Positions 3,989-24,371 of a stretch of DNA of 38,781 nucleotides are shown piece after piece. The stretch is taken from the NCBI GenBank assembly GCA_031412115.1, contig JANOCJ010000103.1, positions 1-38,781 on the forward strand, in the 5' to 3' direction. Source of the DNA: Flavobacteriales bacterium. GTDB lineage: Bacteria > Bacteroidota > Bacteroidia > CAMBQF01. A model generated the notes under the pieces. The model searched no databases. It saw only the letters and a program-made list of their open reading frames with translations, and was not told the origin of the DNA. The translations under genes were made by a program, and so were the position numbers. Every line of letters starts with the position of its first letter. Within the stretch, counting starts at the first letter, position 1.

Positions 3989-3996
3989 TAGTTTTG
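3989..3996 (+). promoter_or_regulatory. candidate -7 promoter box (TAGTTTTG)
   Basis: TAnnTTTG match 31 nt upstream of ATG 4027. It overlaps the TTG at 3994 used by the ORF track, which argues against that start. Confidence 0.4.
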
Positions 3997-4026
3997 TACA
4001 TTATTATTATATTATATATTGCATGT

Positions 4027-6660: not shown

Positions 6661-6688
6661 TTGATAGATGATAATTGAAAATTGATAG

Positions 6689-6716
6689 CCCACGGTTTCA
6701 ACCGTGGGTTTTTTAT
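6689..6716 (+). terminator. rho-independent terminator (GCCCACGG hairpin family)
   Basis: cccacggtt tcaa ccgtggg followed by ttttttatt. It lies 29 nt after the stop at 6658-6660. Confidence 0.8.
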
Positions 6717-6752: not shown

Positions 6753-6786
6753 AAAAACAAAAAAGCCCCTCTGTTTCCAGAAGAGC
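6753..6786 (-). terminator. rho-independent terminator downstream of tRNA-Pro
   Basis: The minus strand reads GCTCTTCTG GAAA CAGAGGGGC TTTTTTGTTTTT (9-bp stem with G-U pairs). It starts 16 nt after the tRNA 3' end. Confidence 0.65.
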
Positions 6787-6801
6787 TTTCATTTATTGTT
6801 G

Positions 6802-6875
6802 TCGGGACGAGAGGATTTGAACCTCCGACCTCCAGCACCCCATGCTGGCGCGATACCAGGCTACGCTACGTCCCG
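6802..6875 (-). tRNA. tRNA-Pro (anticodon GGG)
   Basis: Hand-folded 74-nt cloverleaf. Acceptor stem CGGGACG/CGTCCCG. Anticodon stem CCAGC/GCTGG with loop AUGGGGU (GGG anticodon, G37). T arm GGAGG-TTCAAAT-CCTCT. Discriminator A. No encoded CCA. Confidence 0.9.
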
Positions 6876-6949: not shown

Positions 6950-8074
6950 TTAGTTGGTTTGCGACTTTTTTAAGCGGTCTTTAAACACCTTCTCAAACTT
7001 TTCTACTTTCGGCTTAATAACCATACTGCAATAGGAGTTGCTATTGGCATTATTTGCGTAGTAATCCTGATGGTAATCTTCCGCTTTGTAAAACTTCTCA
7101 AAAGGCACTACCTGCGTTACAATCATATTATCATACACCCTTTCGTTTGTAAGGGCTTTAATAATGTCTTCCGAAATTTTCTTTTGCTCTGCGTTGCGGT
7201 AAAATATGGCCGAACGGTATTGTGTACCCACATCTGCCCCTTGGCGGTTAAGCGTTGTAGGGTCATGCACGGTAAAAAACACTTTTAGTATTTCCTCAAT
7301 AGAAGTTTTAGTATTATCAAAGGTAATCTGCACCACTTCGGCATGGCCGGTAGTACCGTTGCAAACCTCTTTATACGAAGGATTTTTAACGCTTCCACCA
7401 CTGTAACCCGATTCGGCACTGATAACACCATCAAGCATAGCGTAAACGGCTTCTACACACCAAAAACAACCGCCACCAATGGTTAGGGTATCAATATTGC
7501 TCTCTGCTTTGGCTTCACCCGCAGGGGCAGGGGTTTTAATTTGGTCTTGCGGCACAAACTCCAACGATAGTGAGTTAACGCAATAGCGCAAACCGGTATC
7601 AGTTGGGCCGTCGTCAAACACGTGGCCTAAGTGGCCGCTACATTTGGCGCACATAATTTCGGTGCGGCGCATACCTGCGGTATAATCTTCTTTAGTTATG
7701 ATTTTACCATCAGCAATTTCCTTATCAAAACTTGGCCAGCCGCAATGCGAATCAAACTTGCTATCCGATGCAAACAAAGCATTTCCGCAGGCTGCACAGG
7801 TATACATGCCTTTGTCTTTATGCAATAAAAATTCGCCGGTAAAAGGGCGTTCGGTACCTTTTTCGCGCAGTACATAATATTGGTCGGGCGATAGTTCGCT
7901 CTTCCATTGTTCTTCTGTTTTTACCACCTTCCCGGTGTCGTTCGTAATGTCCATATTCCTAATTTTTGTAGCGTTTGCAGTTGCGGTATTTTGGCCACAA
8001 GCTGTAAACAACTGGGTAACAATTAGCAAGCCTGCTAATGCAAGGGCTATTGCCAATGTGTGTTTTGTTTCCAT
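6950..8074 (-). CDS. msrBA: exported bifunctional methionine sulfoxide reductase, MsrB-MsrA fusion (lipoprotein-like signal)
   Basis: The N-terminal half has the MsrB zinc CxxC pairs (CAACGNALF, CAKCSGHLGHVF) and the RYCVNS catalytic motif. The C-terminal half has the MsrA GGGCFWCVE motif. The N-terminus METKHTLAIALALAGLLIVTQLFTACGQN looks like a signal peptide ending in a Cys. Confidence 0.92.
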   Translation of the reverse strand: METKHTLAIALALAGLLIVTQLFTACGQNTATANATKIRNMDITNDTGKVVKTEEQWKSELSPDQYYVLREKGTERPFTGEFLLHKDKGMYTCAACGNALFASDSKFDSHCGWPSFDKEIADGKIITKEDYTAGMRRTEIMCAKCSGHLGHVFDDGPTDTGLRYCVNSLSLEFVPQDQIKTPAPAGEAKAESNIDTLTIGGGCFWCVEAVYAMLDGVISAESGYSGGSVKNPSYKEVCNGTTGHAEVVQITFDNTKTSIEEILKVFFTVHDPTTLNRQGADVGTQYRSAIFYRNAEQKKISEDIIKALTNERVYDNMIVTQVVPFEKFYKAEDYHQDYYANNANSNSYCSMVIKPKVEKFEKVFKDRLKKSQTN

Positions 8075-8180: not shown

Positions 8181-8280
8181 GGGCGTTGCCGCAAAGCATA
8201 CTTTGCGGCCGGGCTATATGCTGCAAGTTCTCGCTACCGCTTTAGCGGTTGCTGCGGGCTTTGCGCTTCTATCCCTAACG
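8181..8280. other. GC-rich, hairpin-dense intergenic element (REP-like or small-RNA-like)
   Basis: Perfect 9-bp stem gccgcaaag-cata-ctttgcggc (8188..8209). 6-bp stem accgct-tt-agcggt (8236..8249). Clearly more GC-rich than the flanking AT-rich spacer. Lies between the MBOAT stop and the msrBA start. Confidence 0.5.
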
Positions 8281-8288
8281 CAATAACT

Positions 8289-8320
8289 CCCTCTCCATTA
8301 GGAGAGGGTTAGGGTGAGGT
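8289..8320. repeat. hairpin plus GGGTGAGG element (copy 2 of 3); probable terminator of the long minus-strand operon
   Basis: ccctctcc-atta-ggagaggg is a perfect 8-bp stem, followed by ttagggtgaggt. It starts 2 nt after the MBOAT stop codon (8322-8324). It is the first convincing hairpin after mreB. Confidence 0.65.
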
Positions 8321-8321
8321 A

Positions 8322-9857
8322 CTAAAACTGAAAATATATAAACGGTTGTATCTCAGCCGATTTTACCTGAATAACGATATAGGCTACAACTAATATAAGT
8401 GCAGCTTTGCCCAGCAATGGGGTTTTGGTAATGCTTACCTGCACAAAATTTTTGGTACGTTGCGGGGTAAAATGCATGGCATAGCCTATCACCATTAGTA
8501 GTATTACATTTTGGTAGCCACTTACAAAACTGCTTAGTATCTCAGGGTGAAAATCATACACAATGCGGGCCATTACCTGGTGGGCAATATCAATGCTTGG
8601 GGCGCGAAAATATATCCAGCAAAAACACACAAAGTTGAAGGTTAGCGCAATGCCTAAAATTCGCATTAGCGTGTTTTTGGGTATGGTAATAACGGTACGA
8701 ATAGCTTTATCTGCGCCCAATGCGGCGCCATGCAATGCTCCCCATAGTATAAATTGCCATGCCGCGCCGTGCCATAAGCCGCCAATAAGCATGGTTATCA
8801 TTTGGTTTACGTACTGCATAAATTTGCCCCTGCGGTTGCCGCCCAGCGATATGTACACATAATCGCGCAGCCAAAAAGATAGCGACATGTGCCAACGGCG
8901 CCAAAACTCAGTTATGCTGCCGCTTTTGTAGGGCGAGGCAAAGTTGGGTTTTAGTGTATAGCCCAGCATTTGGGCAATACCTATTGCCATGTCTGAATAG
9001 CCCGAAAAATCGCAGTAAATAACCAATGCGTAGGCATATACTGCCACCATATTTTCTAAGCCGGTATAGAGCGATGGGTCGTCAAAAACACGGTCTACAA
9101 AGTTGGTGCTGATGTAGTCAGAAATAACGGCCTTTTTAAATAAGCCTACAGCAATAAGGAAAACCGCACGGCCAAAATCTTCTTTACTGATAAAAGCAGG
9201 CTTGCGTATTTGGGGCAGAAAGTCGGCCGCACGTACAATAGGGCCTGCCACCAAGTGGGGGAAAAACGTTACAAAAAACGCATAATCAAGCAACGATTTT
9301 GTAGGCTTTAACTGCCCACGGTAAATATCAATGGTATAGCTCAGCTTTTGAAAGGTAAAGAACGAAATACCCACCGGCAGTATCATGTGGTCGAGGTTGA
9401 AATACCCCACCCAACTGTGCAGTTTTTCGCCTATGTTTCCATTTAAAATATTACTTAAACTCTCGGTATCAATACCTACGTTTTGCAGTATAAAACCGGC
9501 ATATTTAAAGTAAACCAGCGCACCTACGTTTATGAGTAAACTAACCGTTACCCATAGTTTTTTGCGGGCCTTAGTTTCTGCTTGATAGATGCGTTCCCCA
9601 ATTAAAAAATCGGCCAGTGTAGAGCCAATCAACATAAACACAATCAACCCGCCCGACTTATAATAAAACAGTAACGAGAACAATGTAAGGTACACTGTGC
9701 GCATAAAATTAGCACGGTACACAATGCCGTAGCCCACCATAAATGCGGCAAACAGCCAAACAAAAAAGCCTGTGTTAAATAGTAAAGGCTCTTTACTATT
9801 ATAGTAAAATAGTTGTTCTAATTTACTAAAGTCAATATTGGGCAATGCAAAGCTCAT
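8322..9857 (-). CDS. MBOAT family membrane-bound O-acyltransferase (AlgI/PatA/DltB-like)
   Basis: Polytopic membrane protein with the MBOAT signature FWRRWHMSLSFWLRDYVYISLGGNR and a downstream GGLWHGA. The ATGA start/stop overlap with the upstream SGNH gene points to translational coupling. Confidence 0.92.
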   Translation of the reverse strand: MSFALPNIDFSKLEQLFYYNSKEPLLFNTGFFVWLFAAFMVGYGIVYRANFMRTVYLTLFSLLFYYKSGGLIVFMLIGSTLADFLIGERIYQAETKARKKLWVTVSLLINVGALVYFKYAGFILQNVGIDTESLSNILNGNIGEKLHSWVGYFNLDHMILPVGISFFTFQKLSYTIDIYRGQLKPTKSLLDYAFFVTFFPHLVAGPIVRAADFLPQIRKPAFISKEDFGRAVFLIAVGLFKKAVISDYISTNFVDRVFDDPSLYTGLENMVAVYAYALVIYCDFSGYSDMAIGIAQMLGYTLKPNFASPYKSGSITEFWRRWHMSLSFWLRDYVYISLGGNRRGKFMQYVNQMITMLIGGLWHGAAWQFILWGALHGAALGADKAIRTVITIPKNTLMRILGIALTFNFVCFCWIYFRAPSIDIAHQVMARIVYDFHPEILSSFVSGYQNVILLMVIGYAMHFTPQRTKNFVQVSITKTPLLGKAALILVVAYIVIQVKSAEIQPFIYFQF

Positions 9858-11206
9858 TTGTTTTTATTTGCTTTATAGTCTGCGTAAGCGTTTAAAATTG
9901 CACTAAGTAACATGCGCCCCTGCATGTTGTAGCCCGCCTTGTTAAAATGCACCCCATCGCCTGCCATCATCCCGTATTTTCTCCATTTTGTGCGTGAGCC
10001 ATACCCGCCTGTAATTTCATTCATATCCCATATTGCCATGTTATAATCGGTAGCATAGCGGCGTATGGTTTTTACCACCAACGGCAAATTGGGTTGCGCG
10101 TATTTTTTCTTCTTAAAACAGTCGGGTGGGGTGGTAAGCAAAAAGCCCGTTTGTGGCGGGTAAATAGCCATTAGCCCCGTCATTAATGAGTCTATTTGTT
10201 TGTATATAAGGTTGGTGTCTAAACTGCTGCCAAAAGCTTCGTTAGTGCCAAGCGATATAATGACCAACTCGGGTTTTAAGTCGTGGGCCTCTTTAAAAAA
10301 CATAGGCGTTGCTGCCCAGTCAGAAAAGTGCGCGCCGTTAGCGCCTGCTACGTGGTATAAAACGCCCGGACTGCCATTGGTAAGCACCACGCCGTGTATA
10401 GCTGCCTGGTTTTGTTTAGCTCCGGTTTTTACATTTTGCAGAAAAATATATTCGGTTGGATAGTTGGCTATTTCAGTAAAAGCAAATGAATTTTCGCGGG
10501 TTGATTTTTTGCGGATGCTATTTTTGTCATCCAACGATAGGTCTTTGTAATAGGATATATTTACCGAATCGCCTGCTAAAATAGTGTATGCCGAATCGCC
10601 CATTTGGCAGAAAACCGTTGCGTATGCAAACTGGTAATCCATGCTGTCCTTATCATTTACTTTAATGAGTAGCGATGCAGTAGAATCGTACGTGGCAGCA
10701 AAAAAACCGCTAACGCCGCAATACTTTCTATACTGGGCCTGCACTACACGCCCGCCTGCCCAGTATCCTTTGCTATAGCCACGCACTGATGCCGAACCAT
10801 TTTGCCCTTTAATTACAGAATGAGGAAATACCAACCCTCGCCCTGCATTGCCAAAACGTTTTTGTAAACCTACGCGTATGGGTTGTGTTAGCATATCAGC
10901 CTGTATGTGCGAATCGCCAACGTGCAGCACAGATACATTGCCAATGTTTTTACTCTCCAGCCAATCCAATTTCTCAAAAAAGTAGTTGAGCGATTGGGCG
11001 TTTTCCACTACATTTTTTTCAATACTAAATATACTAGTGTCAGCTACCTGCGCCGAGAGTTGAGAGCCGAGAGCCGAGAGGATTAGAATGAAAAATGAAA
11101 AACGAAAAATGAAAAATGAAGCCTTGCTTTTTCTCTTTTTTACAGAGAAGAAGTCACTCAAACACACCGTAGGCAAGCCTTTACAGGCTTTTTTTCTTTT
11201 CCACAT
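9854..11206 (-). CDS. SGNH/GDSL-family hydrolase or acyltransferase, paralogue 2 (secreted)
   Basis: Block I VLHVGDSH (Ser99), block III ISLGTNEA, block V GDGVHF. A signal-peptide-like segment FFIFRFSFFILILSALGSQLSAQ is encoded by a 7-nt periodic tract. The exact start is uncertain because the only in-frame ATG upstream of the catalytic core is at 11206. Confidence 0.8.
   Translation of the reverse strand: MWKRKKACKGLPTVCLSDFFSVKKRKSKASFFIFRFSFFILILSALGSQLSAQVADTSIFSIEKNVVENAQSLNYFFEKLDWLESKNIGNVSVLHVGDSHIQADMLTQPIRVGLQKRFGNAGRGLVFPHSVIKGQNGSASVRGYSKGYWAGGRVVQAQYRKYCGVSGFFAATYDSTASLLIKVNDKDSMDYQFAYATVFCQMGDSAYTILAGDSVNISYYKDLSLDDKNSIRKKSTRENSFAFTEIANYPTEYIFLQNVKTGAKQNQAAIHGVVLTNGSPGVLYHVAGANGAHFSDWAATPMFFKEAHDLKPELVIISLGTNEAFGSSLDTNLIYKQIDSLMTGLMAIYPPQTGFLLTTPPDCFKKKKYAQPNLPLVVKTIRRYATDYNMAIWDMNEITGGYGSRTKWRKYGMMAGDGVHFNKAGYNMQGRMLLSAILNAYADYKANKNK
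11052..11121 (+). repeat. 7-nt-periodic tract: (GCCGAGA-like) x4, spacer, (AATGAAA-like) x5
   Basis: gccgaga gttgaga gccgaga gccgaga ggattag aatgaaa aatgaaa aacgaaa aatgaaa aatgaag. The first 30 nt are 26/30 identical by hand alignment to the reverse complement of 18283..18312. Confidence 0.85.
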
Positions 11207-12512
11207 ATTTATACTTCTCGTACAATATTGTCTCCATTAATATTTTGGCAATTTGCTTGCCACCACTAAATTTTAAGTGGGTATAATCCTTATTGGCCCA
11301 TCCTTTATCGGCATACGTTACCATCGATTTTTCGCCACCCATTGCCTCAAATAAATTCCAAAAAGCAATACCGGTTTCACTGGCTATGCGGCGTTGGCTT
11401 TCTACCAGCAGCGGTATGCTTTTCATTGTAACATATTCGCCGTTCTTTTTGGTGCTTCGGTCGCTAACGCTAACCAGCAAAATGGTAGCGCCGGGGCAGT
11501 TTTTCTTTAAACGGTTTATTACCTTAATCATGTTATTCTCGTATGCCGTAAACTTGGTAGTACCTTCGGCAGCAACATTTAAGCCGTATTGCAATACAAT
11601 TAGTTTATACCCGCGTAGCGAGTCAAATTCGGCCATCATATCTTCTCCTACATTCAATAGTGCCATACCCGAGTTTCCGCGCAGCGAAAGGTTATCTACG
11701 CTAATACCCGTTGTATCTTCTAATGCTATGCCGTATATCTCGCCACCGCCACCAAAGCTAAATGCGGTGTTGCGTATGCTGTCTTTTTTAATCTGTACTA
11801 AGCCCACTTTTTTAGTAGCAACAAGCGTAAAGCTTTGCGCACCTTTACTGTTTATATTGCAGCTTACAGTAGTATTTGCGCCGCTGCGGTAGTATATGTT
11901 TATGCAGTTAAAGCGGCTAAGCCTTGGGTTTGATTTTATAGCCCCAAAATTTAACGTAGCGCCTGCCGCCGGTACAAATGTGTTGCATGCAAAACCTAAC
12001 GATGCGTTGGCCGGTTTACCCTCTAAAGCCGTGTACGTTGTAAAACCGCTAAAGTTGTGGGTAACCGTTTGGCGAAACTGGTTTACCATTGATGTAACGG
12101 GCATTAAGCCTACACCATGGCCGCCATACAGGCTTTGCAACGAATCGCGCAGGGTGGCGGTAATAATATCGCCCTCAATAAACGAGTCGCCAAAATAGCC
12201 AATGCGTACTGCTGTTTGCTTGGTAGAATCTAAATGCAGCAAGGCATCCAGAAAGTTATTGAGCGCGTTTTTATCCTTGCTATAATCTTCAAAACAGGTA
12301 ATGCCGGTTTTGCAGGTATCTACAAACTGGGGTTTTACTTTTTTAGCAGCCAAGGTGCTATCTATAATTTCCTTTTCTACGTCAGAAAACAGGTTGACTG
12401 GCTTAAAGGTGTGGCCAAAAAGGGTAAACTCTGTGGTGATGAATGACAGGCCCACTAATACAACAAACACTATTAAAACCAAGCCAAACGACTGTCTAAT
12501 GTAATTCTTCAT
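11181..12512 (-). CDS. SGNH/GDSL-family hydrolase or acyltransferase, paralogue 1 (N-terminal membrane anchor)
   Basis: N-terminal TM segment FGLVLIVFVVLVGLSFI. Block I IGYFGDSFIEGD (Ser110), block II GISVDNLSLRGNSG, block III VLQYGLNVA, block V KDYTHL. The start lies 8 nt after the rodA stop. Confidence 0.85.
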   Translation of the reverse strand: MKNYIRQSFGLVLIVFVVLVGLSFITTEFTLFGHTFKPVNLFSDVEKEIIDSTLAAKKVKPQFVDTCKTGITCFEDYSKDKNALNNFLDALLHLDSTKQTAVRIGYFGDSFIEGDIITATLRDSLQSLYGGHGVGLMPVTSMVNQFRQTVTHNFSGFTTYTALEGKPANASLGFACNTFVPAAGATLNFGAIKSNPRLSRFNCINIYYRSGANTTVSCNINSKGAQSFTLVATKKVGLVQIKKDSIRNTAFSFGGGGEIYGIALEDTTGISVDNLSLRGNSGMALLNVGEDMMAEFDSLRGYKLIVLQYGLNVAAEGTTKFTAYENNMIKVINRLKKNCPGATILLVSVSDRSTKKNGEYVTMKSIPLLVESQRRIASETGIAFWNLFEAMGGEKSMVTYADKGWANKDYTHLKFSGGKQIAKILMETILYEKYKYVEKKKSL

Positions 12513-12520
12513 CGGGTAAT

Positions 12521-13807
12521 TTACAGAATTTGCATGCGGTACGAATCTAATCGTAACAAAATGAATAATAATATGGTGAATGATAATAACGACGACCCCC
12601 CGTAGCTAAAAAAGGGTAGGGGTATACCAATTACCGGCATAAGCCCCAACGTCATGCCCACATTTACCAATAAGTGGAAAAATATTATGGAGGCTACGCC
12701 ATAGGCATAAACGCGGGTAAACGGCGATTTTTGTCGCTCGGCTAAAAATATAATGCGCAATATGAGGAACATAAAAAGCAGCAACACGGTAGTTGTACCT
12801 ATAAAGCCCCATTCTTCGCCCACGGTGCAAAATATAAAGTCGGTGTCTTGCTCGGGCACAAAATCGTACTTGGTTTGGGTGCCTTTTAACCAACCCTTGC
12901 CCAATGCGCCGCCTGAGCCAATTGCTATTTTAGATTGATTTACGTTATATAAAACCCCTTTTTTAGCCTCTTTCATCTGGCTGGGATCTATTTTACCTAA
13001 TAGTGCAGTAATACGTATACTTTGGTGGGGCTTTAAAACCTTGGTAAAAATGTAGTTTACACTTAGCGTAAAGCCAACTGCAGCAATGGCTACAACCGTA
13101 ATGCCTATAAGGCGGCGGAACCGGCGTTTACCAAAAAAGAAAAATACCACAGCAGCCACTATGCCTATTATAGAAAATATGATGGCTTTTTGTTCTATTA
13201 CAATAGATAGGATAAATAATACCAGTACTGAAAAACCGAGCAATAAAAAGCCGCCGGGCAGCCCCTCGCGGTATAGTACCATAACCAATGCGGTATATAC
13301 CAATGCCATACCGGTTTCGTTTTGTAGCAGGATAATTACAACCGGTAAACAGATGATAGCTGCACACACAAGCCGTGTTTGCAGTTTTTCCATTTTGATG
13401 TTTACGTTGCTTAAATAGCGCGCCAGTGCAAGGCAAACCGCAAATTTTGAAAGCTCGGCCGGCTGCAAACTAAAGCCCCCGCCAAGCCTAATCCATGAGT
13501 GGGATCCTTTAATTTCGGCCCCTATAAATATGGTAGCTATAAGTAGCAGTATCATAAAGCCATATATCCAAAAGGAGAAGGTGGCAAAAAATTTACCGTC
13601 AACAAACAGTATAACCAAGGCCACCGCCAACGATATGCCGATAAACATAACCTGCTTACCGTATTGCATATTCAGGCTGAAGATGCTTTTATGCTCCTCG
13701 TTATATACCGCGGCATAAATATTAAACCACCCCATTGTTACCAATATTAGGTATATGGCAAATATGGGCCAGTCAATATTATGCAATATGCTCCGTTGCT
13801 CTCTCAC
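12521..13807 (-). CDS. rodA: SEDS-family peptidoglycan glycosyltransferase RodA
   Basis: Polytopic protein with the FtsW/RodA/SpoVE hallmarks (GSGGALGKGWLKGTQTKYDFVPEQDTDFIFCTVGEEWGFIG, PFFSYGGSS). GTG start 1 nt after the mrdA stop. Confidence 0.93.
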   Translation of the reverse strand: MREQRSILHNIDWPIFAIYLILVTMGWFNIYAAVYNEEHKSIFSLNMQYGKQVMFIGISLAVALVILFVDGKFFATFSFWIYGFMILLLIATIFIGAEIKGSHSWIRLGGGFSLQPAELSKFAVCLALARYLSNVNIKMEKLQTRLVCAAIICLPVVIILLQNETGMALVYTALVMVLYREGLPGGFLLLGFSVLVLFILSIVIEQKAIIFSIIGIVAAVVFFFFGKRRFRRLIGITVVAIAAVGFTLSVNYIFTKVLKPHQSIRITALLGKIDPSQMKEAKKGVLYNVNQSKIAIGSGGALGKGWLKGTQTKYDFVPEQDTDFIFCTVGEEWGFIGTTTVLLLFMFLILRIIFLAERQKSPFTRVYAYGVASIIFFHLLVNVGMTLGLMPVIGIPLPFFSYGGSSLLSFTILLFILLRLDSYRMQIL

Positions 13808-13808
13808 G

Positions 13809-15668
13809 TTATTCGTCCGTTGGTATTACCTTTTTCTTTACTTTCTCGTATACAGGCAATACTTTGCCTTCCATCATACGTTTTTCAAGGTCAACCCGTT
13901 TTATTTTTTTCTTCAGGTATTTTTCAATCATTAAACTGGCAATAGGCGCAGCCCATGTAGCTCCAAAGCCTGCATTCTCTACATACACAGCTACGGCTAT
14001 TTTAGGGTTATCTAATGGCCCAAAACATATAAAAATAGAGTGGTCTTTACCATGTGGATTTTGAGCCGTACCTGTTTTGCCGCCCAATTTAATACTGTCT
14101 ATCTGCGCAATGCGGCCCGTACCATTGGTCATTACATTGCCCATGGCCGCTACCACAATGTCAAAGTTTTTACGCTCTACCTTGGTATAATTCTTTTTGC
14201 CGAAGCGTGGGTCATACTGCCCAACGGTTTGGTTGCCAATTTTTTTAATGGCGTGTGGCAGGTAATAATAGCCACGGTTGGCCAGCGTAGCACACATATT
14301 GGCCATTTGCAAAGGGGTAAGCAGCATCTCGCCCTGGCCAATGCCCAACGATATAACCGATAAGCCCCGCCAGCGGCCTTTGCCATACATTTTGTTATAA
14401 TATTCAGCACTGGGTACGTTGCCTTTCAATTCGTTGGGTAAGTCACACGGCAACCGCGCGCCCAAGCCAAAGCTCATAATATATTCGCGCCATTTGCGGT
14501 AGCCGGCCTCTGATGGTTTATAATGCTCTACCTGGTTGCGGAAAACGTTGCAAAAGTAGCCGTTGCACGATGTGGTAATAGCCCCCAGTAAATCTAGCGG
14601 GCTTGCGTGGGCGTGGCAACCTACGTGTACACCGCCCATACTAAAGCCGCGGTTGCAGCCATAGCGTGTTTCGGGGAAAAGCGTGCCATCTTGAAGGCCT
14701 ACCAGGGCGTTTATTAACTTAAATGTAGAACCCGGGGGGTACATAGCCATTAATGCGCGGTTAAACAGCGGCTTGGCCGAGTCCAGTTCCAGCTTGCGGT
14801 AGTTTTTAGAAAACTCGTGTCCTACCAATAAGTTAGGGTCGTATGTAGGGCTTGATACCAATGCCAAAATTTCGCCGGTGGCAGGCTCAATAGCTACAAT
14901 AGAGCCTATTTTATTCTTCATCAGCTTTTCCCCATATTCCTGTAGGTCAAGGTCAATGCTTGATATAAGGTCAACCCCGGCAACGCCCAAGGTGTCAAAC
15001 TTACCATTGGCAAAGGGCGCACGCTCGCGGTTAAATACGTCTTTCTCAATATGGCGCACCCCGCGTATACCACGCAAAGGTTCTTCGTACGATTTTTCAA
15101 TCCCGCTCAAGCCAATATAATCGCCCATTAAGTAATAAGGGTTCTTTTCTATAATGCGCTCGTTTACCTCGCCTACATAGCCCAGTAAATGGGCGCCAAT
15201 GCCTTTAGGGTAATTACGTATGGTACGCGATTGCACATAGAAACCTTCAAAGTCGTAAAGCTTTTCCTGCAAGGCAGCATAAGCGCGACCCGATAGCTGA
15301 GCCTCAAAAATGGCGGGTTGGTAAGTTGCGGGGTTTTGTTTTTTTAGGCGTTTAAAACGGTCAACAAACTCTACGGTGGTAATATTTAACAACCGGCAAA
15401 GTTCAAGCGTATCGCAATTTTTTACCTGGTTAGGTACTACCATTAAATCATAAGCAGCCTGGTTGGCTACCAGCAACTGCTTGCCGTAACGGTCATAAAC
15501 AACACCACGCGGCGGATAATCTACAATGCGTCGTATGGCCTGGTTAACAGCCATAATTTTATACTTATCATCAACTATCTGAATATAGAATAGCCGTGCT
15601 ATGTATAGCAAAACAACGGCTACAACAATGCCGCCAATTAGGTAACGCCTAGAGCCGAGCTGGTTCAT
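13809..15668 (-). CDS. mrdA: penicillin-binding protein 2 (elongasome transpeptidase)
   Basis: N-terminal anchor, then transpeptidase motifs STFK (PGSTFKLINAL), SxN (TSCNGYF) and KTG (GGKTGTAQ). ATGA overlap with mreD. Confidence 0.93.
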   Translation of the reverse strand: MNQLGSRRYLIGGIVVAVVLLYIARLFYIQIVDDKYKIMAVNQAIRRIVDYPPRGVVYDRYGKQLLVANQAAYDLMVVPNQVKNCDTLELCRLLNITTVEFVDRFKRLKKQNPATYQPAIFEAQLSGRAYAALQEKLYDFEGFYVQSRTIRNYPKGIGAHLLGYVGEVNERIIEKNPYYLMGDYIGLSGIEKSYEEPLRGIRGVRHIEKDVFNRERAPFANGKFDTLGVAGVDLISSIDLDLQEYGEKLMKNKIGSIVAIEPATGEILALVSSPTYDPNLLVGHEFSKNYRKLELDSAKPLFNRALMAMYPPGSTFKLINALVGLQDGTLFPETRYGCNRGFSMGGVHVGCHAHASPLDLLGAITTSCNGYFCNVFRNQVEHYKPSEAGYRKWREYIMSFGLGARLPCDLPNELKGNVPSAEYYNKMYGKGRWRGLSVISLGIGQGEMLLTPLQMANMCATLANRGYYYLPHAIKKIGNQTVGQYDPRFGKKNYTKVERKNFDIVVAAMGNVMTNGTGRIAQIDSIKLGGKTGTAQNPHGKDHSIFICFGPLDNPKIAVAVYVENAGFGATWAAPIASLMIEKYLKKKIKRVDLEKRMMEGKVLPVYEKVKKKVIPTDE

Positions 15669-16180
15669 GAATTGGATTTACTCCTTGAGAAAAACTGCTG
15701 GCTAATTAAAATCAAAATAAGGGTAAATGCGCTGCTGGCGAAAATTTTTATAAACATGTGTATCAACTCTGCAAAGCGGAAATACTCTATAAAAAACAGT
15801 ACAAAATGGTGTACAAAAACCAATACCCCTGCATATACCAAATACTTGGGCAGCCCTAAATGTTGTAATGATGGTTTAAAATAATCTACCCCCTCGCGCG
15901 GAGAGATAAGTTTAATCATGCCCGGGCGCAACAGGCCTACAAAAAGGCAGGCAGTAGTATGCATGCCCAAGGTATCGCCAAACATATCCATTATTAAACC
16001 GGTAATAAAGGCAAGCACCAATACCAGGCCGCGTGGGGTTTCTATGGGCAATGAAAGGATAAATAGCACATACAAAAACGGGTTGAGGTAAACACTCAAC
16101 TGTATTTTGTTAAGCACCAAAATCTGCAAGGCCAGTAGCAGAAAAAAGCGGAATATATTTTTAATTATCTCAATTCCCAT
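15665..16180 (-). CDS. mreD: rod shape-determining protein MreD
   Basis: 171-aa polytopic membrane protein between mreC and mrdA. Overlaps mreC by 11 nt. Called from size, topology and position. Confidence 0.8.
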   Translation of the reverse strand: MGIEIIKNIFRFFLLLALQILVLNKIQLSVYLNPFLYVLFILSLPIETPRGLVLVLAFITGLIMDMFGDTLGMHTTACLFVGLLRPGMIKLISPREGVDYFKPSLQHLGLPKYLVYAGVLVFVHHFVLFFIEYFRFAELIHMFIKIFASSAFTLILILISQQFFSRSKSNS

Positions 16181-17024
16181 TGGCGTCGTGCTCTACTGCT
16201 TTAATCGTTTTTTCTTCCAATGTATCGCGCTCGGCGCGGGTAAAATCACTAATTACATACACATGGGTAAGGCTGCTGAAATTGGTAGACAGTTTTACCC
16301 TGATAAGATGAAATGCATCGTTCGATTTTTCTTCCAGCCTGTCAACCGTGCCCACCATAATCCCTTCCGGAAAAATATCGCTAAAGCTGGTGGTAACAAT
16401 CGTATCGCCTTGTTTAAGTTTTACGTAGATGGCAATATCGCGCAAATAGGCGTAGTCAGGGTTAGTTCCATCCCATGCCAACGAGCCAAAATTATCAGTT
16501 TTCTGTAGCTTGGCGCTCACCCTTACCGCTTTGTGCAAAAGCGATAGTACGGTAGAGTAATTCTGTGACACATCTTTTACCACACCTACAATACCGTTGG
16601 GCGATATAACGGCCATTTGGGGTTTTATACCATGCAGGCTGCCTTTGTTTAGGGTAATGTAGTTGTTACGGCGGTCGGTAGAGTTATTGATAACCTTGGC
16701 CGCGGTGTAATTATACTTTAACAGGTGGATGGTATCGTCTTTCTCAAAAAACTTTTTGTTGGCTATTTCATAAGCCGAGCGAGATTGTGAGCGCAGGCGG
16801 GCATTCTCTTCGGCCAACAGGGCGTTGGCTTTTTTAAGGGCAAAATAATCGGTTACTTCCGACTCGGCCTCTAAAACTTTACCCGAAACATTGTTCGCTG
16901 AATTGATGTATGCGGCTTTGTGGTAGTTATTATTGCTAAAAAGCAATAGTAGCGATACCCCGAATAGCAGGATAAATAGAATGAAAAACCACGAGCGTAT
17001 AACAAAATTGATGAAGTTTCTCAT
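16170..17024 (-). CDS. mreC: rod shape-determining protein MreC
   Basis: N-terminal TM segment, coiled-coil stretch (LKKANALLAEENARLRSQ), then beta-rich domains with GIVGVV and GDTIVTS-like motifs. Located directly after mreB. Confidence 0.88.
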   Translation of the reverse strand: MRNFINFVIRSWFFILFILLFGVSLLLLFSNNNYHKAAYINSANNVSGKVLEAESEVTDYFALKKANALLAEENARLRSQSRSAYEIANKKFFEKDDTIHLLKYNYTAAKVINNSTDRRNNYITLNKGSLHGIKPQMAVISPNGIVGVVKDVSQNYSTVLSLLHKAVRVSAKLQKTDNFGSLAWDGTNPDYAYLRDIAIYVKLKQGDTIVTTSFSDIFPEGIMVGTVDRLEEKSNDAFHLIRVKLSTNFSSLTHVYVISDFTRAERDTLEEKTIKAVEHDANGN

Positions 17025-17054
17025 GCTGCAAAAATAGCCCGGCTATTAAAGGCG

Positions 17055-18077
17055 TTATTTTATGAGGAACTGGAAGTTATCAATATTCTTAAGTGCAATA
17101 CCGGTACCACGTGCTACGGCGCGTAGCGGGTCTTCAGCCACATGCACAGGCAGTTTGGTTCGCATAGATACGCGTTTGTCCAAACCACGCAGCAGCGAGC
17201 CACCACCGGCCATGTAAATACCTACGCGGTAAATATCAGCCGACAGTTCGGGCGGGGTCATTTCAAGGGCGCTCAAAATAGCGGCCTCAATTTTAGAGAT
17301 AGATTTATCAAGCGCGTGGGCAATCTCCGAGTACGAAACATAAATTTCCTTCGGAATACCCGTCATTAAGTCGCGGCCGTGCACGGCATAATCAGGTGGC
17401 GGATTGTCAATTTCGGTCATAGCTGCACCTACGTTAATTTTTATCTGCTCGGCAGAACGCTCACCAATTAAAATATTGTGCTGGCGGCGCATATATTCTT
17501 CAATATCAGCAGTAAACTCATCACCCGCAACGCGGATTGATTTATCGCAAACAATACCACCTAAGGCAATAACGGCAATTTCAGATGTACCACCGCCAAT
17601 GTCAATAATCATGTTACCCACAGGCTCGGTTACGTCAATACCCATACCAATAGCGGCTGCCATAGGTTCGTGTATCAGGTATACCTCTTTGGCCCCGGCA
17701 TGCTCAGCGCTGTCGCGTACGGCACGTTTCTCCACCTCGGTAATGCCCGATGGGATACAAATTACCATTTTCAACGACGGGCTAAACCACCTTTTGGTAG
17801 GGTTTATCATCTTTATCATGCCGCGAATCATGTGTTCGGCAGCGTGAAAGTCGGCAATAACCCCATCTTTTAACGGACGTATGGTTTTGATGTTCTCGTG
17901 GGTTTTGCCATGCATCTGCATCGCTTTTTTGCCCACAGCAATCACCTTGCCGCTGGTTCGGTCAACAGCCACAATAGATGGCTCGTCTACCACAACCTTG
18001 TCGTTATGTATAATGATCGTATTGGCGGTGCCAAGATCAATCGCAATTTCTTGCGTTAAAAAATCAAACATTCCCAT
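17055..18077 (-). CDS. mreB: actin-like rod shape-determining protein MreB
   Basis: IAIDLGTANT, DIGGGTSEIAV and GIYMAGGGSLLRGLD ATPase motifs. 340 aa. Confidence 0.96.
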   Translation of the reverse strand: MGMFDFLTQEIAIDLGTANTIIIHNDKVVVDEPSIVAVDRTSGKVIAVGKKAMQMHGKTHENIKTIRPLKDGVIADFHAAEHMIRGMIKMINPTKRWFSPSLKMVICIPSGITEVEKRAVRDSAEHAGAKEVYLIHEPMAAAIGMGIDVTEPVGNMIIDIGGGTSEIAVIALGGIVCDKSIRVAGDEFTADIEEYMRRQHNILIGERSAEQIKINVGAAMTEIDNPPPDYAVHGRDLMTGIPKEIYVSYSEIAHALDKSISKIEAAILSALEMTPPELSADIYRVGIYMAGGGSLLRGLDKRVSMRTKLPVHVAEDPLRAVARGTGIALKNIDNFQFLIK

Positions 18078-18114: not shown

Positions 18115-18122
18115 CAAATATA
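18115..18122 (-). promoter_or_regulatory. candidate -7 promoter box for mreB (TATATTTG on the minus strand)
   Basis: TAnnTTTG match 38 nt upstream of the mreB ATG. Flanked by the inverted heptamers TAACGTG (18108..18114) and CACGTTA (18146..18152). Confidence 0.4.
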
Positions 18123-18281: not shown

Positions 18282-18316
18282 CCCTCTCGGCTCTTCCCTC
18301 TCAACTCTCCGCTCTT
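18282..18316 (-). repeat. 7-nt-periodic tract, dispersed copy of the 11052 element
   Basis: The plus strand reads ccctctc ggctctt ccctctc aactctc cgctctt. Its reverse complement is 26/30 identical to 11052..11081 and, like that copy, is followed by AATGAA. It overlaps the purH stop codon (18315-18317). Confidence 0.85.
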
Positions 18317-19841
18317 AATGCTTAAAATGCCTGTTTCCGGTAAATACCATGGCCATATTGTTAGCGTTGCAATAATCAATGCTCAACTGGTCTTTAATAC
18401 TGCCACCGGGCTGTATTACGGTATTTACGCCCTCGTTGTGTGCAATCTCTACACAATCAGGAAACGGGAAAAATGCATCCGATGCCATAACAGCACCTTT
18501 TAAATCAAATCCAAAGGCGTTAGCCTTGGCAATAGCCTGTTTCAACGCATCAACGCGCGATGTTTGGCCTGTGCCACTGGCAATTAGCTGTTTGTTTTTG
18601 GCTAAAACTATGGTGTTAGATTTTGTATGCTTAACCAGTTTGTTGGCAAACAATAAATCTTCAACCTCTTGCGTCGTAGGGGCAATATTAGTTACCGTTG
18701 TTAAATCGGCAGCTACCTCTACTTTGCTGTCTACATCCTGCACCAATAAGCCGTTTAGCGATGTGCGCACTTGTTTGCTTGGGCGTGTAAACGGTTTAAG
18801 TTTTACTAAAATACGGTTCTTTTTGCTCTTTAAAATTTCCAGCGCCTTGTCGTCAAAGCCTGGAGCAATAAGTATTTCAAAAAATAATTTGTCCAGTTCT
18901 AAAGCCGTGGCTTCGTCAATAGTGGCATTGGTTGCCAACACCCCGCCAAATGCCGAAACCGGGTCGCCGGCAAGGGCATCATTGTAGGCTTGCAATACCG
19001 TTGGGCGCGATGCTAAACCACAAGCGTTGTTATGCTTGATGATGGCAAACGTAGTTTCGTCAAAATCTTTTATAAGCGATAAAGCTGCATCGGCGTCCAA
19101 CAAGTTGTTGTACGATAATTCTTTGCCGTGTAGTTTTTCAAACACCTCATTCAAATCGCCATAAAATGCGCCCTGTTGGTGTGGATTTTCGCCGTAACGC
19201 AAGGTTTCGCCGCCGTTGTGGCTTAGTTTGATAGAAGGTATTTCGTTGTTCTTGTTGAAGTAGTTAAAAATGGCACTGTCGTACCCCGATGAAACATTAA
19301 ACGCTTTGCCTGCGAATAACTTACGGTCTTCAATATCCGTTTCGCCGTTTTTCTCTTCTAAAATATCCAGCAAGGGTGTGTAATCAGCTTTCGAGGCAAT
19401 AATCACCACATCATTAAAATTCTTTGCTGCTGCGCGGATAAGCGAAATGCCGCCAATATCAATCTTTTCAATAATATCTTCTTCTGCAGCGCCCGATGCT
19501 ACGGTAGCCTCAAAAGGATACAAATCCACAATCACTAAATCAATTTCGGGTATCTCGTATTCGGCAATCTCTGCTACATCACCATTATTTTCGCGGCGGT
19601 TTAAAATCCCTCCAAATACTTTGGGGTGAAGCGTTTTAACCCTTCCACCCAGTATTGATGGATAGCCGGTTAAATCTTCAACTGCCGTAACGGGGATATT
19701 TAAGCCTTCAATAAACTGCTGCGTGCCGCCGGTAGAATAAAAGGTAACGCCATCGCTATGCAACTTTTTAATCAACGGTTCTAAACCATCTTTATAGTAA
19801 ACAGAAACCAGTGCGGTTTTAATTTTTTTGGATTGGGCCAT
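18315..19841 (-). CDS. purH: bifunctional AICAR transformylase / IMP cyclohydrolase PurH
   Basis: 508 aa. N-terminal MGS-like IMPCH domain (ALVSVYYKDGL..., GGRVKTLHP) and C-terminal AICARFT domain (IIKHNNACG, NTVIQPGGSIKD). Confidence 0.96.
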   Translation of the reverse strand: MAQSKKIKTALVSVYYKDGLEPLIKKLHSDGVTFYSTGGTQQFIEGLNIPVTAVEDLTGYPSILGGRVKTLHPKVFGGILNRRENNGDVAEIAEYEIPEIDLVIVDLYPFEATVASGAAEEDIIEKIDIGGISLIRAAAKNFNDVVIIASKADYTPLLDILEEKNGETDIEDRKLFAGKAFNVSSGYDSAIFNYFNKNNEIPSIKLSHNGGETLRYGENPHQQGAFYGDLNEVFEKLHGKELSYNNLLDADAALSLIKDFDETTFAIIKHNNACGLASRPTVLQAYNDALAGDPVSAFGGVLATNATIDEATALELDKLFFEILIAPGFDDKALEILKSKKNRILVKLKPFTRPSKQVRTSLNGLLVQDVDSKVEVAADLTTVTNIAPTTQEVEDLLFANKLVKHTKSNTIVLAKNKQLIASGTGQTSRVDALKQAIAKANAFGFDLKGAVMASDAFFPFPDCVEIAHNEGVNTVIQPGGSIKDQLSIDYCNANNMAMVFTGNRHFKH

Positions 19842-21386: not shown

Positions 21387-21477
21387 TTGCCCAATAGTAC
21401 CCTCATTCCGACAAATCGTCCATTGATAACCAGAGTATAATGCAGGAAATTTGTATCCGAACATTAAATACTCGGAT

Positions 21478-24343: not shown

Positions 24344-24371
24344 AAAAGCCTTGATTTATCAAGGCTTTTTT
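24344..24371 (+). terminator. rho-independent terminator
   Basis: aaaa gccttga ttta tcaaggc tttttt has a perfect 7-bp stem extended by A/T pairs. It lies 28 nt after the trx stop. Confidence 0.8.

Follow-up and report, generated by a model that had tools for sequence, protein, structure and literature searches.

A putative peptidoglycan O-acetylation module joined to the Rod operon in a Flavobacteriales bacterium

A Rod operon and a peptidoglycan O-acetylation (OAP) module of the Bacteroidota type probably form one transcription unit in the window, the whole 38,781-nucleotide stretch of DNA from an uncultured Flavobacteriales bacterium analysed here, with SGNH-1 as transferase and SGNH-2 as esterase. 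In the ORF list, the minus strand from 8322 to 18077 holds an eight-gene unit composed of mreB, mreC, mreD, mrdA and rodA, followed by the genes of two SGNH proteins (SGNH-1 and SGNH-2) and an MBOAT, the last three being called the triad below. The triad has been known in Bacteroidota since 2005 and is therefore not new to the phylum; the new part is its fusion to the elongation genes, in a few lineages only.

Layout and boundaries of the eight-gene unit

The genes and the candidate signals at both ends of the unit are as follows.

18115..18122, minus strand: candidate -7 box of a Bacteroidetes-type promoter, TATATTTG, ending 37 nt before the ATG of mreB
17055..18077, minus strand: mreB, 340 aa (PF06723, 2.9e-128; NF010539, 6e-141)
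16170..17024, minus strand: mreC, 284 aa (PF04085, 1e-43; NF010532, 5e-97)
15665..16180, minus strand: mreD, 171 aa (TIGR03426, 2e-10, above cutoff; no match in the Pfam search)
13809..15668, minus strand: mrdA (PBP2), 619 aa (TIGR03423, 6e-144, above cutoff; PBP_dimer and Transpeptidase domains)
12521..13807, minus strand: rodA, 428 aa, GTG start (NF037961, 1e-146; PF01098, 2e-80)
11181..12512, minus strand: SGNH-1, 443 aa, Ape1b-type (Lipase_GDSL_2)
9854..11206, minus strand: SGNH-2, 450 aa, gene in the Ape1c position (Lipase_GDSL_2)
8322..9857, minus strand: PatA-like MBOAT, 511 aa (PF03062, 8e-33), stop TAG at 8324-8322
8289..8308, minus strand: candidate terminal hairpin CCCUCUCC-UAAU-GGAGAGGG, 13 nt past the MBOAT stop, with an 8-bp G+C-rich stem

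Neighbouring genes are separated by a 30-nt gap (mreB/mreC), overlap by 11 nt (mreC/mreD) and 4 nt (mreD/mrdA), are separated again by 1 nt (mrdA/rodA) and 8 nt (rodA/SGNH-1, 12513-12520), and overlap by 26 nt (SGNH-1/SGNH-2) and 4 nt (SGNH-2/MBOAT); the minus-strand packing and all seven junction sizes described in an earlier note on this DNA match the ORF list exactly. The region from mreB to the MBOAT gene is read as one transcription unit, the members of which would be co-transcribed.

The consensus for Bacteroidetes promoters is TAnnTTTG. The box TATATTTG lies in the 237-nt gap after purH and may be the operon promoter, the evidence of the box being weak because the motif is not enriched across the window (50 matches against 53.8 expected). 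At the other end, the stable hairpin that had been claimed right after the MBOAT stop was confirmed at 8289-8308; its extended fold (8262-8325) reaches -23.6 kcal/mol with z = -3.1, and none of 200 shuffles folds as well. It is a candidate for the end of the transcription unit and is followed by no U-tract, which is why the consensus terminator scan missed it. That scan returned 22 terminator-like sites against 17.8 +/- 4.0 expected, about chance level; its minus-strand sites between 8322 and 18077 all fall inside coding sequence, and it found no terminator-like hairpin between the eight genes.

Predicted roles of the SGNH proteins and the MBOAT

SGNH-1 and SGNH-2 are paralogues (hhalign probability 99.7%) that share an SGNH domain interrupted by a beta-sandwich insertion. 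SGNH-1 has a membrane anchor at its N-terminus (helix 5-23 in the AlphaFold2 model, pLDDT 87), and in the family alignment its Cys pair C67 and C73 is conserved and its catalytic S110, D409 and H412 are invariant together with the block III N312. SGNH-2 (AlphaFold2 model pLDDT 86) has a cleavable signal peptide (...LSA|Q, with Q53 invariant), and S99, D417, H420 and N322 are likewise invariant in its family alignment. SGNH-2 has diverged much more than its neighbours in L002, L085 and L086, three related loci of the survey described below, with 42-46% identity against 66-81%.

Ape1 of N. meningitidis is matched in the PDB by SGNH-1 and SGNH-2 with E-values of 1.9e-16 and 1.2e-19 in phmmer and 1.8e-28 and 9.7e-43 in profile searches, the latter placing SGNH-2 nearer to this esterase than SGNH-1, and for both proteins Ape1 leads other solved relatives by about 15 orders of magnitude. 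Foldseek likewise returned Ape1 (4k3u) as the top match of both models (SGNH-1, E 2.7e-23, TM 0.85; SGNH-2, E 3.6e-25, TM 0.83), with alignments spanning the whole SGNH domain and the inserted beta-sandwich, and the next matches at E >= 1e-8. Judged by sequence and predicted fold, both SGNH proteins belong to the Ape1 family, and their closest solved relatives are only peptidoglycan O-acetylesterases. The HMM and Foldseek checks proposed in the earlier note thus gave matches to MBOAT (PF03062) and Lipase_GDSL_2 and none to ALGX, and best structural matches to Ape1 rather than to lipid or EPS acyltransferases. PatB matches neither SGNH profile at E <= 10, AlgX/AlgJ have no Pfam match to either protein, and all of these are absent from the top 50 Foldseek matches; in sequence and predicted fold, neither protein resembles PatB, AlgX/AlgJ or a lipid acyltransferase.

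The MBOAT carries the catalytic His363 (in GLWHG) and a C-terminal acyl-shuttle hexapeptide, FIYFQF, of the FxYxxF type, a motif that 61 of 64 full-length orthologues carry. PatA is known to autoacetylate the Tyr of its FxYxxF motif, and PatB takes the acetylated peptide as donor; in every characterised bacterial MBOAT of this type, an SGNH protein, as a rule the product of an adjacent gene, takes over the acyl group (Anderson et al., 2025; PMC12148441). The best PDB match of the window MBOAT is DltB (1.7e-27), the closest solved structure, and the DltB-DltD-DltX system of teichoic acid D-alanylation shares the acyl-Tyr shuttle logic. However, the window MBOAT scores 180 bits against the 375-bit cutoff of the DltB equivalog, its shuttle motif is fused to the enzyme whereas that of Dlt is on a microprotein, and the window has no dltA, dltC or dltD.

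By analogy with PatA, the MBOAT would move acetyl groups from cytoplasmic acetyl-CoA to the Tyr of FIYFQF on the periplasmic side, from where the anchored SGNH-1 would take them on Ser110 and hand them to the C6-OH of peptidoglycan MurNAc, filling the role of PatB in Neisseria and Campylobacter. Secreted SGNH-2, the probable periplasmic O-acetylpeptidoglycan esterase, would remove O-acetyl groups and thereby open the wall to lytic transglycosylases. With the module as the last part of the Rod operon, acetylation capacity may track side-wall synthesis through co-regulation. SGNH-1 as O-acetyltransferase partner of the MBOAT stays an inference because both SGNH proteins resemble the esterase Ape1 and not a known transferase. 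The unusual block II loop of SGNH-1, RGNSG, has three more residues than its counterpart NGA in Ape1 and SGNH-2; it recalls the Gly-to-Ser/Asn replacement in PatB, and two alignment methods place the loop differently.

Gene pairing and comparison with known systems

Almost all of the roughly 150 related loci keep the triad genes side by side, and the triad, with conserved gene order, has more than 550 species-level genome matches among those listed; it also occurs in MAGs of Bacteroidales, Prevotellaceae and Paludibacter. Five loci have SGNH-1 directly before the MBOAT gene and no SGNH-2 within 10 kb, which suggests that a working pair can do without SGNH-2. In L165, SGNH-1 and MBOAT are together on one strand and SGNH-2 is on the opposite strand, and SGNH-2 with MBOAT and without SGNH-1 was found in none of the 80 loci fetched with SGNH-2 where upstream sequence exists. 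This pairing supports SGNH-1 as the core partner of the MBOAT, as do the membrane helix of SGNH-1 and, for SGNH-2, its greater closeness to Ape1 and its fast divergence.

In the alginate system of Pseudomonas (AlgI-AlgJ-AlgF-AlgX), an MBOAT likewise works with a pair of SGNH-like proteins in the periplasm, of which the first is anchored in the membrane and the second is soluble and bears a carbohydrate-binding module (AlgJ/AlgX), a division that the anchored/soluble SGNH pair of the window mirrors. A comparable relay, in which SGNH-1 would receive the acetyl group and pass it to SGNH-2 as the terminal peptidoglycan transferase, with no dedicated esterase, would need both SGNH proteins and would give the carbohydrate-binding-type insertion of SGNH-2 to that transferase. 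The cohesion of the three genes fits such a relay, and so does the presence of an anchored and a secreted SGNH paralogue, each with an intact catalytic triad. It is nevertheless unlikely, given the five loci without SGNH-2, the place of SGNH-2 as the paralogue closest to a characterised esterase, and SGNH folds that match Ape1, not AlgX/AlgJ; unlike the alginate system, the window has no ALGX Pfam match, AlgF, alginate synthase or export genes.

By gene order and motifs, the triad appears to be of the ape1b-ape1c-pat type described in B. thetaiotaomicron, B. fragilis and P. gingivalis by Weadge, Pfeffer and Clarke (Weadge et al., 2005; PMC1199599), who measured wall O-acetylation at 27-69% in the two Bacteroides species. 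The claim that the arrangement was not characterised in Bacteroidota was therefore overstated, as both the gene order and the O-acetylation had been published. The two clusters share, within one phylum, the order of two family-1 Ape genes and then an MBOAT 'pat', motifs I, GDS(F/H), and VII, Dx(T/V)H (GDSF/DYTH in SGNH-1 and GDSH/DGVH in SGNH-2), and a beta-rich insertion after motif I. They differ in that the upstream neighbour reported in Bacteroides is a cation-efflux transporter and not rodA (PMC1199599), whereas the window triad is fused to the Rod operon. Against the published description of Ape1c as lacking an insertion of about 100 aa (PMC1199599), SGNH-2 has one in its AlphaFold2 model.

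Weadge et al. (PMC1199599) annotated both Ape1b and Ape1c as O-acetylpeptidoglycan esterases, whereas SGNH-1 is argued here to be a transferase. Their reading, under which the transferase serving the MBOAT would be encoded elsewhere, agrees with the Ape1-like sequence and fold of both SGNH proteins, but it dates from before Ape2 was recognised as the transferase PatB. It is improbable, since characterised bacterial MBOATs of this type use an SGNH partner that is usually adjacent (PMC12148441), no PatB-like protein was found in the window or in the roughly 150 related loci, and the strict pairing of SGNH-1 with the MBOAT is not easily accounted for if SGNH-1 is purely an esterase.

With the PatA-PatB-Ape1 system of Neisseria and Campylobacter (Anderson et al., 2025; PMC12148441), the window shares the MBOAT catalytic His and C-terminal FxYxxF, the grouping of three genes in a unit, an SGNH esterase that has the Ape1 fold and its beta-sandwich insertion, and, as presumed substrate, the MurNAc C6-OH. 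In contrast, the window has no PatB-type (Ape2) transferase, in place of which stands a membrane-anchored second Ape1 paralogue, and its SGNH genes precede the MBOAT gene, the opposite of the order in that system. The proposal of an O-acetylation module in the earlier note thus holds for the type, peptidoglycan O-acetylation (His363, FIYFQF and the Ape1 fold), and fails for the composition, which is not PatA/PatB/Ape1, both SGNH proteins being Ape1 paralogues.

Linkage to the Rod genes among related loci

The eight-gene unit recurs in every one of the seven relatives tested whose SGNH-1 is 51% or more identical (L002, L081-L083, L085, L086 and L088); the short contig of L001 shows the portion from rodA to SGNH-1. 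The rodA/SGNH-1 junction measures 2-7 nt in L081-L083, L086 and L088, and the 26-nt SGNH-1/SGNH-2 overlap recurs in L081-L083, L085 and L088. The flanks differ: upstream, the window has purH and L081 an AI-2E transporter; downstream, the window has msrAB, L085 a gene of the DsbA family, L086 DUF2442 and L081 a GT4 glycosyltransferase. The close spacing is not a chance feature of a single genome.

Upstream sequence of 1.5 kb or more exists for 120 related loci, of which 110 have no adjacent rodA; the upstream neighbours belong to 61 different families, and most flanking genes have unrelated housekeeping functions. In L045 and L161, the triad stands a short way downstream of mrdA-rodA or of the complete Rod operon, on the same strand. 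L045 is a Bacteroidales MAG whose close relatives carry a different upstream gene, and L161 has a GC content of 53% and an MreB only 47% identical to that of the window. Their rodA-to-triad gaps of 0.2-0.9 kb, together with the 110 loci without rodA, limit tight coupling to one lineage. A tie to the elongasome, as formerly put forward, is consequently not a property of the system, and what stands of it is the fusion kept in one lineage and the adjacency in L045 and L161. Rod-gene adjacency is seen in three lineages among some 61 upstream contexts, against about 0.01 roughly estimated for a random position in a genome of a few thousand genes; recurrence in two unrelated lineages and a stable fusion beat chance, suggesting a functional association of the triad with the Rod genes. 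Physical coupling of the module to RodA/PBP2 is a conjecture.

It was also considered whether the triad is a separate unit driven by a promoter inside rodA, the small gaps merely reflecting genome compaction. The triad is an independent unit in most genomes, and the gap in L045 holds a TAnnTTTG box of its own, next to the wide spacing in L045 and L161. This explanation is very unlikely, however, as the minus strand of rodA in the window has no TAnnTTTG, intergenic hairpins were not found by the scan, and the junction, 8 nt here and 2-7 nt in L081-L083, L086 and L088, is kept down to 51% protein identity.

The substrate of the module is most plausibly peptidoglycan. Alginate, cellulose and secondary wall polymers are further targets of MBOAT/SGNH pairs (PMC12148441), and the module might instead acylate another envelope polymer (capsule/EPS, LPS or protein O-glycans), its site after rodA being a neutral rearrangement. 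The prevalence of loci without rodA among housekeeping flanks agrees with this, as does the GT4 glycosyltransferase just downstream of the triad in all of L081-L083. It has little probability in view of the Ape1 kinship of the SGNH proteins and the low chance of the Rod adjacency, and so widespread a triad with conserved order is more in keeping with a universal substrate than with a glycan that varies between strains. Neither in the window nor in the surveyed loci were genes for polysaccharide synthases or export found beside the triad, and orthologues elsewhere proved not to lie in EPS or alginate loci, in line with the earlier proposal.

The gene directly upstream of the triad on the same strand encodes an acetyl-CoA synthetase in seven loci and a DUF218 protein in 11, neighbours that would represent an acetyl donor and an envelope context.

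Layout of the eight-gene unit

The eight genes lie on the minus strand as one closely packed unit, and all the junctions and coordinates that the earlier note had read from the sequence were recovered in the ORF table; the gene names it had given are likewise borne out by Pfam and NCBIfam. The Rod (elongasome) operon mreBCD-mrdA-rodA is complete, with its five genes contiguous on one strand (ORF table, Pfam, NCBIfam), and is followed by a triad of two SGNH genes and one MBOAT gene.

Features of the eight-gene unit and its flanks, in the direction of the minus strand
18315-19841, minus strand: purH, upstream neighbour of mreB
18115-18122, minus strand: -7-type box TATATTTG, 37 nt from the mreB ATG, inside the 237-nt gap before mreB
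17055-18077, minus strand: mreB, 30-nt gap to mreC (ORF table, Pfam/NCBIfam)
16170-17024, minus strand: mreC, 11-nt overlap with mreD (ORF table, Pfam/NCBIfam)
15665-16180, minus strand: mreD, 4-nt overlap with mrdA (TIGR03426)
13809-15668, minus strand: mrdA (PBP2), 1-nt gap to rodA (TIGR03423, above cutoff)
12521-13807, minus strand: rodA, GTG start, 8-nt gap to SGNH-1 (NF037961)
11181-12512, minus strand: SGNH-1, 26-nt overlap with SGNH-2 (Lipase_GDSL_2)
9854-11206, minus strand: SGNH-2, 4-nt overlap with MBOAT (Lipase_GDSL_2)
8322-9857, minus strand: MBOAT, last gene (PF03062)
8289-8308: hairpin, 13 nt past the MBOAT stop, 8 bp, G+C-rich, no U-tract
6950-8074, minus strand: msrB/msrA fusion, downstream neighbour of MBOAT

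We infer that the eight genes are co-transcribed. The box before mreB fits the Bacteroidetes -7 consensus, TAnnTTTG, and a motif search of the minus strand found none within rodA; both observations weigh little, because the motif occurs in the whole window at chance frequency (50 found against 53.8 expected). The extended fold around the hairpin behind the MBOAT gene reaches -23.6 kcal/mol (z = -3.1), and the hairpin sits in a longer imperfect palindrome (8262-8322, minus strand), ACCCUAACCCUCUCC...GGAGAGGG...UUAGGG. A generic terminator scan gave nothing above chance, and its minus-strand matches within 8322-18077 all fall in coding sequence; a combined sigma-70 promoter and terminator scan gave about chance counts, a sigma-70-type scan being uninformative for a Bacteroidota genome.

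Elsewhere in the window, Rfam and tRNA scans found only a tRNA-Pro (GGG) at 6801-6875 on the minus strand, outside the operon region and immediately downstream of msrAB; a strong terminator-like hairpin bearing a T-run (6761-6790, minus strand) comes next, and the gene of an 888-aa double-AAA+ ATPase (3994-6660), which lies on the opposite strand, ends at a terminator at 6687-6710. Three proteins (62-2539, 21451-22344 and 24351-28202), among them a 1283-aa M43 peptidase and one with DUF7619, carry Por_Secre_tail, the C-terminal sorting domain of type IX secretion, which confirms a Bacteroidota chromosome. The divergent genes at 31639-32820 (minus strand) and 32785-34689 (plus strand), encoding a WG-repeat protein and a PMT_2/TPR membrane glycosyltransferase-like protein, overlap by 36 nt at their 5' ends as called, and one of the two start codons is probably miscalled.

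Relationship of the triad to known acylation systems

The MBOAT is a protein of 511 aa that matches PF03062 at 8e-33, carries a catalytic histidine (His363) in GLWHG, and ends in QPFIYFQF, so that the MBOAT domain, the catalytic His and the C-terminal FxYxxF motif by which PatA is recognised are all present. A motif of this type was found in 61 of the 64 full-length MBOAT orthologues collected, 56 of which have the exact QPFIYFQF end. PatA autoacetylates the tyrosine of its C-terminal FxYxxF hexapeptide, and PatB draws on the resulting acetyl-Tyr peptide when it acetylates a mimic of peptidoglycan; PatA-type MBOATs require an SGNH partner, and all bacterial MBOATs with a fused FxYxxF motif are argued to act alike (Anderson et al., 2025; PMC12148441). 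In Zymomonas, deletion of patA abolishes wall O-acetylation (2026 preprint). DltB is the nearest solved structure to the MBOAT; a Dlt-type module was rejected, with a TIGR04091 score of 180 bits, below the cutoff of 375, and none of the partners DltA, DltC, DltD or DltX in the window.

The two SGNH proteins are paralogues, which hhalign aligns along the entire ectodomain (probability 99.7%, E 3e-26, 350 columns). In their family alignments (A1 for SGNH-1, A2 for SGNH-2), S110 in block I, N312 in block III, and D409 and H412 in block V are invariant in SGNH-1, as are S99, N322, D417 and H420 in the same blocks of SGNH-2. Their only strong sequence matches in the PDB are to the peptidoglycan O-acetylesterase Ape1, as solved from N. 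meningitidis (4k3u) and from C. jejuni (8gld, 8gkd); the former is matched at 1.9e-16 by SGNH-1 and 1.2e-19 by SGNH-2 as single sequences, and at 1.8e-28 and 9.7e-43, respectively, as profiles. AlphaFold2 models (pLDDT 87 for SGNH-1, 86 for SGNH-2) have in both cases an SGNH alpha/beta domain split after block I by a beta-sandwich; both proteins possess the SGNH domain, inserted CBM35-like beta-sandwich and Ser-His-Asp triad that characterise Ape1. Foldseek against the PDB ranks five Ape1 chains (4k3u, 8gld, 8gkd) first for both models, with target-normalised TM of 0.74-0.85 over 369-409 alignment columns and E from 3e-22 to 4e-25 (against 4k3u, 2.7e-23 for SGNH-1 and 3.6e-25 for SGNH-2), followed by CE2 esterases and isolated CBMs at E >= 1e-8.

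The best fold matches are thus Ape1, and not the lipid or EPS acyltransferases that the earlier note had allowed for, since Ape1 alone matches strongly and PatB, AlgX and AlgJ are absent from the top 50 Foldseek matches of either model. No PatB homologue was found by single-sequence, profile or fold search, and PatB among the PDB sequences is unmatched by either SGNH profile even at E <= 10. A module of alginate or EPS type (AlgI/AlgJ/AlgX) was rejected as well: the one kind of Pfam domain matched at E <= 0.01 is Lipase_GDSL(_2), with no ALGX, the flanks are Rod genes, purH and msrAB with no polysaccharide genes nearby, and the folds match Ape1 only.

O-acetylpeptidoglycan (OAP) clusters were defined by Weadge, Pfeffer and Clarke (2005; PMC1199599), who described ape1b, ape1c and then pat, the MBOAT gene, in B. 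thetaiotaomicron, B. fragilis and P. gingivalis, measured wall O-acetylation of 27% in B. thetaiotaomicron and 69% in B. fragilis, and listed a Zymomonas cluster as containing an ape1b. The window triad has the same order on one strand. The OAP Ape motifs, GDS(H/F) for motif I and Dx(V/T)H for motif VII (PMC1199599), are matched by GDSF and DYTH in SGNH-1 and by GDSH and DGVH in SGNH-2, with Ser, Asp and His invariant in A1 and A2. In Ape1b, motif I is followed by an inserted stretch of about 100 aa, which Ape1c is without (PMC1199599). SGNH-1 has this insertion (strands at 151-265 of the model), whereas SGNH-2 departs from Ape1c, by its description rather than by the NP_811593-NP_811595 sequences, in having an insertion as well (strands at 141-288 of the model). 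The Bacteroides clusters lie behind a cation-efflux transporter and not rodA (PMC1199599), whereas the window triad lies behind rodA. The triad also occurs in Bacteroidales, Prevotellaceae and Paludibacter MAGs. The earlier note had held the arrangement to be uncharacterised in Bacteroidota; given the matching order and motifs, the triad type was already described for the phylum in 2005 (PMC1199599), and a literature search found, among the papers it covered, no later work on Ape1b/Ape1c or on the genetics of O-acetylation in Bacteroides.

The triad is a member of this Bacteroidota ape1b-ape1c-pat type, and not of the PatAB, alginate or Dlt type, and is probably a module for peptidoglycan O-acetylation, as predicted from its parts. 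By analogy, it may work like the PatA/PatB/Ape1 system of Neisseria and Campylobacter, with which it shares a PatA-type MBOAT and Ape1-type SGNH proteins; in contrast to that system, it has no PatB-type (Ape2 family) transferase, both SGNH proteins being Ape1 paralogues.

Linkage to rodA among related loci

Related loci were collected in two scans, the first anchored on SGNH-1 with one genome per species, which gave at least 556 confirmed loci, and the second anchored on SGNH-2 in metagenome contigs, which gave 80 further loci with the same gene order. The best 80 of the at least 556 loci span Flavobacteriales, Chitinophagales, Cytophagales and Bacteroidales (MAGs and isolates), and nearly all of them have SGNH-1, SGNH-2 and MBOAT in order. 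Linkage was counted in the 120 loci of both scans (the first represented by its best 80 of at least 556) whose sequence extends 1.5 kb or more beyond SGNH-1 on its upstream side: rodA lies upstream on the same strand in 10 of these 120, and in 2 of 64 genome loci, so phylum-wide linkage was rejected. The nearest upstream gene, named by Pfam, belongs to 61 families, the largest being DUF218 (11 of 120 loci, same strand), pyridoxal-dependent decarboxylase (10, opposite strand), rodA (9), acetyl-CoA synthetase (7, same strand) and FolD (6). With so few rodA contexts and so many upstream families, the triad is normally a free-standing unit. Acetyl-CoA synthetase, linked in seven Cytophagales-type loci (L030, L036, L061, L063, L069, L112 and L164), and DUF218 could be functional partners of the triad in acetyl supply and envelope biogenesis, respectively; as a clue to the substrate, a conserved alternative neighbour is suggestive at most with flanks so varied. 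The upstream DUF218 is YdcF/ElyC-like.

The ten rodA-linked loci form three groups: the window's lineage, L045 and L161. Among the loci surveyed, the eight-gene unit is present in every relative whose SGNH-1 shares 51% identity or more (L001, a partial contig, L002, L085, L086, L088 and L081-L083), and 2-7 nt separate rodA from SGNH-1 in L081-L083, L086 and L088. The flanks of the unit vary: L081 has an AI-2E transporter on the upstream side and GT4 on the downstream side, and the downstream neighbour is a DsbA-family gene in L085 and a DUF2442 gene in L086. The next-closest SGNH-1 relatives, 47-48% identical (proteins P0011 and P0013, and locus L003), have no rodA linkage. In L045, from a Bacteroidales MAG, mrdA-rodA is followed by a spacer of about 0.8 kb, which holds a TACTTTTG box and, on the other strand, the remnant of a T9SS-tail gene, and then by the triad; its close relatives share the downstream genes and have a decarboxylase upstream in place of rodA. 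L161 (1-9198), an activated-sludge contig of 53% GC whose MreB and RodA are 47% and 28% identical to those of the window, has mreB-mreC-mreD-mrdA-rodA, a gap of about 0.2-0.3 kb, and then SGNH-1, SGNH-2 and MBOAT.

Unlinked loci are nearer to the window in similarity than L045 and L161; therefore, the linkage was gained several times, or it is ancestral and was often lost. By a rough estimate, assuming a few thousand genes per genome, chance would place the triad directly behind rodA in a total of about 0.01 contexts among the roughly 61 distinct ones, against three seen, which gives real gene-neighbourhood evidence for a functional association of the triad with side-wall synthesis. The tie to the elongasome drawn in the earlier note is one of gene neighbourhood: a tight fusion in the window's lineage, where alone the coupling is tight and probably translational, and looser adjacency in L045 and L161, while 110 of the 120 loci are unlinked. 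The rodA-SGNH-SGNH-MBOAT order recurs in three lineages and is not general (10 of 120, the first scan entering as its best 80 of at least 556). The observation of the earlier note stands, and its interpretation is partly supported, for a probable O-acetylation module but not for a general tie to the elongasome; a physical attachment of the OAP proteins to the elongasome is unlikely. The literature search found no report of an MBOAT linked to rodA. New here are the Rod-operon fusion in one uncultured lineage and the recurrence of Rod adjacency in two others; their significance is limited, as the cluster type has long been known and few lineages have the fusion. It is the first hint found in gene neighbourhoods that a Gram-negative phylum coordinates acetylation with the synthesis of its side wall.

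Proposed division of labour between the SGNH proteins

Lytic transglycosylases and the sensitivity of the wall to lysozyme are both under the control of peptidoglycan O-acetylation. To our knowledge, the enzymes responsible for it have yet to be assigned in Bacteroidota, among them gut Bacteroides, whose walls are heavily O-acetylated. The re-identification of Ape2 as the transferase PatB left the Bacteroidota cluster without a recognised transferase.

SGNH-1 begins with a hydrophobic helix (residues 5-23 of the AlphaFold2 model) without an obvious cleavage site, followed by an invariant cysteine pair (C67, C73), and from its sequence the helix is read as a membrane anchor. The signal peptide of SGNH-2 ends in LSA, followed by Gln Q53, which is invariant in A2; Bacteroidetes signal peptidase I substrates prefer Gln at +1, which this site fits, and SGNH-2 is therefore considered secreted and periplasmic. 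In profile searches, SGNH-2 is far nearer to Ape1 than SGNH-1 is. It is also by far the fastest-diverging gene of the operon, with 42-46% identity to the window protein in the eight-gene relatives L002, L085 and L086, against 66-68% for SGNH-1 and 75-81% for RodA, PBP2 and MBOAT in the same loci; relaxed or diversifying selection may act on the secreted protein.

Five loci labelled Crocinitomicaceae/Lishizhenia have SGNH-1 and then MBOAT directly, with no SGNH-2 within 10 kb, and L165, a locus with divided genes, has SGNH-1 and MBOAT together on one strand and SGNH-2 on the other. None of the SGNH-2-anchored loci with upstream sequence has SGNH-2 and MBOAT without SGNH-1. The anchored state of SGNH-1 and these pairings suggest that it would be the SGNH partner that takes acetyl from the MBOAT, i.e., the O-acetyltransferase, while SGNH-2, which some lineages can do without and which is secreted, fast-evolving and more Ape1-like, would be the O-acetylpeptidoglycan esterase. 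Acetyl as the transferred group fits the acetyl-CoA synthetase directly upstream in seven loci. The comparative argument for an Ape1 paralogue as the missing transferase is new, and the survey yields a testable assignment, with SGNH-1 as candidate transferase and SGNH-2 as candidate esterase; in some lineages, the module appears to be placed under shared transcriptional control with MreBCD, PBP2 and RodA. The full explanation, comprising the roles of both SGNH proteins and co-transcription, is somewhat favoured. A wider reading, that Bacteroidota acetylate peptidoglycan without PatB or OatA by means of an anchored Ape1-fold SGNH-1 turned transferase, and that in several lineages this is a side-wall step in elongation, is quite improbable; SGNH-1 would then cooperate directly with the MBOAT, and the module would lie in the Rod operon as acting on nascent glycan strands made by RodA-PBP2.

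In PatB and pneumococcal OatA, the Gly of block II is replaced, giving a type I turn. Block II, the oxyanion loop, was rejected as a discriminator of transferase and esterase: SGNH-1 has a longer RGNSG against NGA in Ape1 and SGNH-2, and the loop is not relied on because phmmer and hhalign disagree on its register. Among other arrangements, SGNH-1 occurs without a nearby MBOAT in L066 and L071 (Prevotellaceae MAGs) and in L043, SGNH-2 is alone in L156, and L101 has SGNH-1 and SGNH-2 with no MBOAT within 6 kb.
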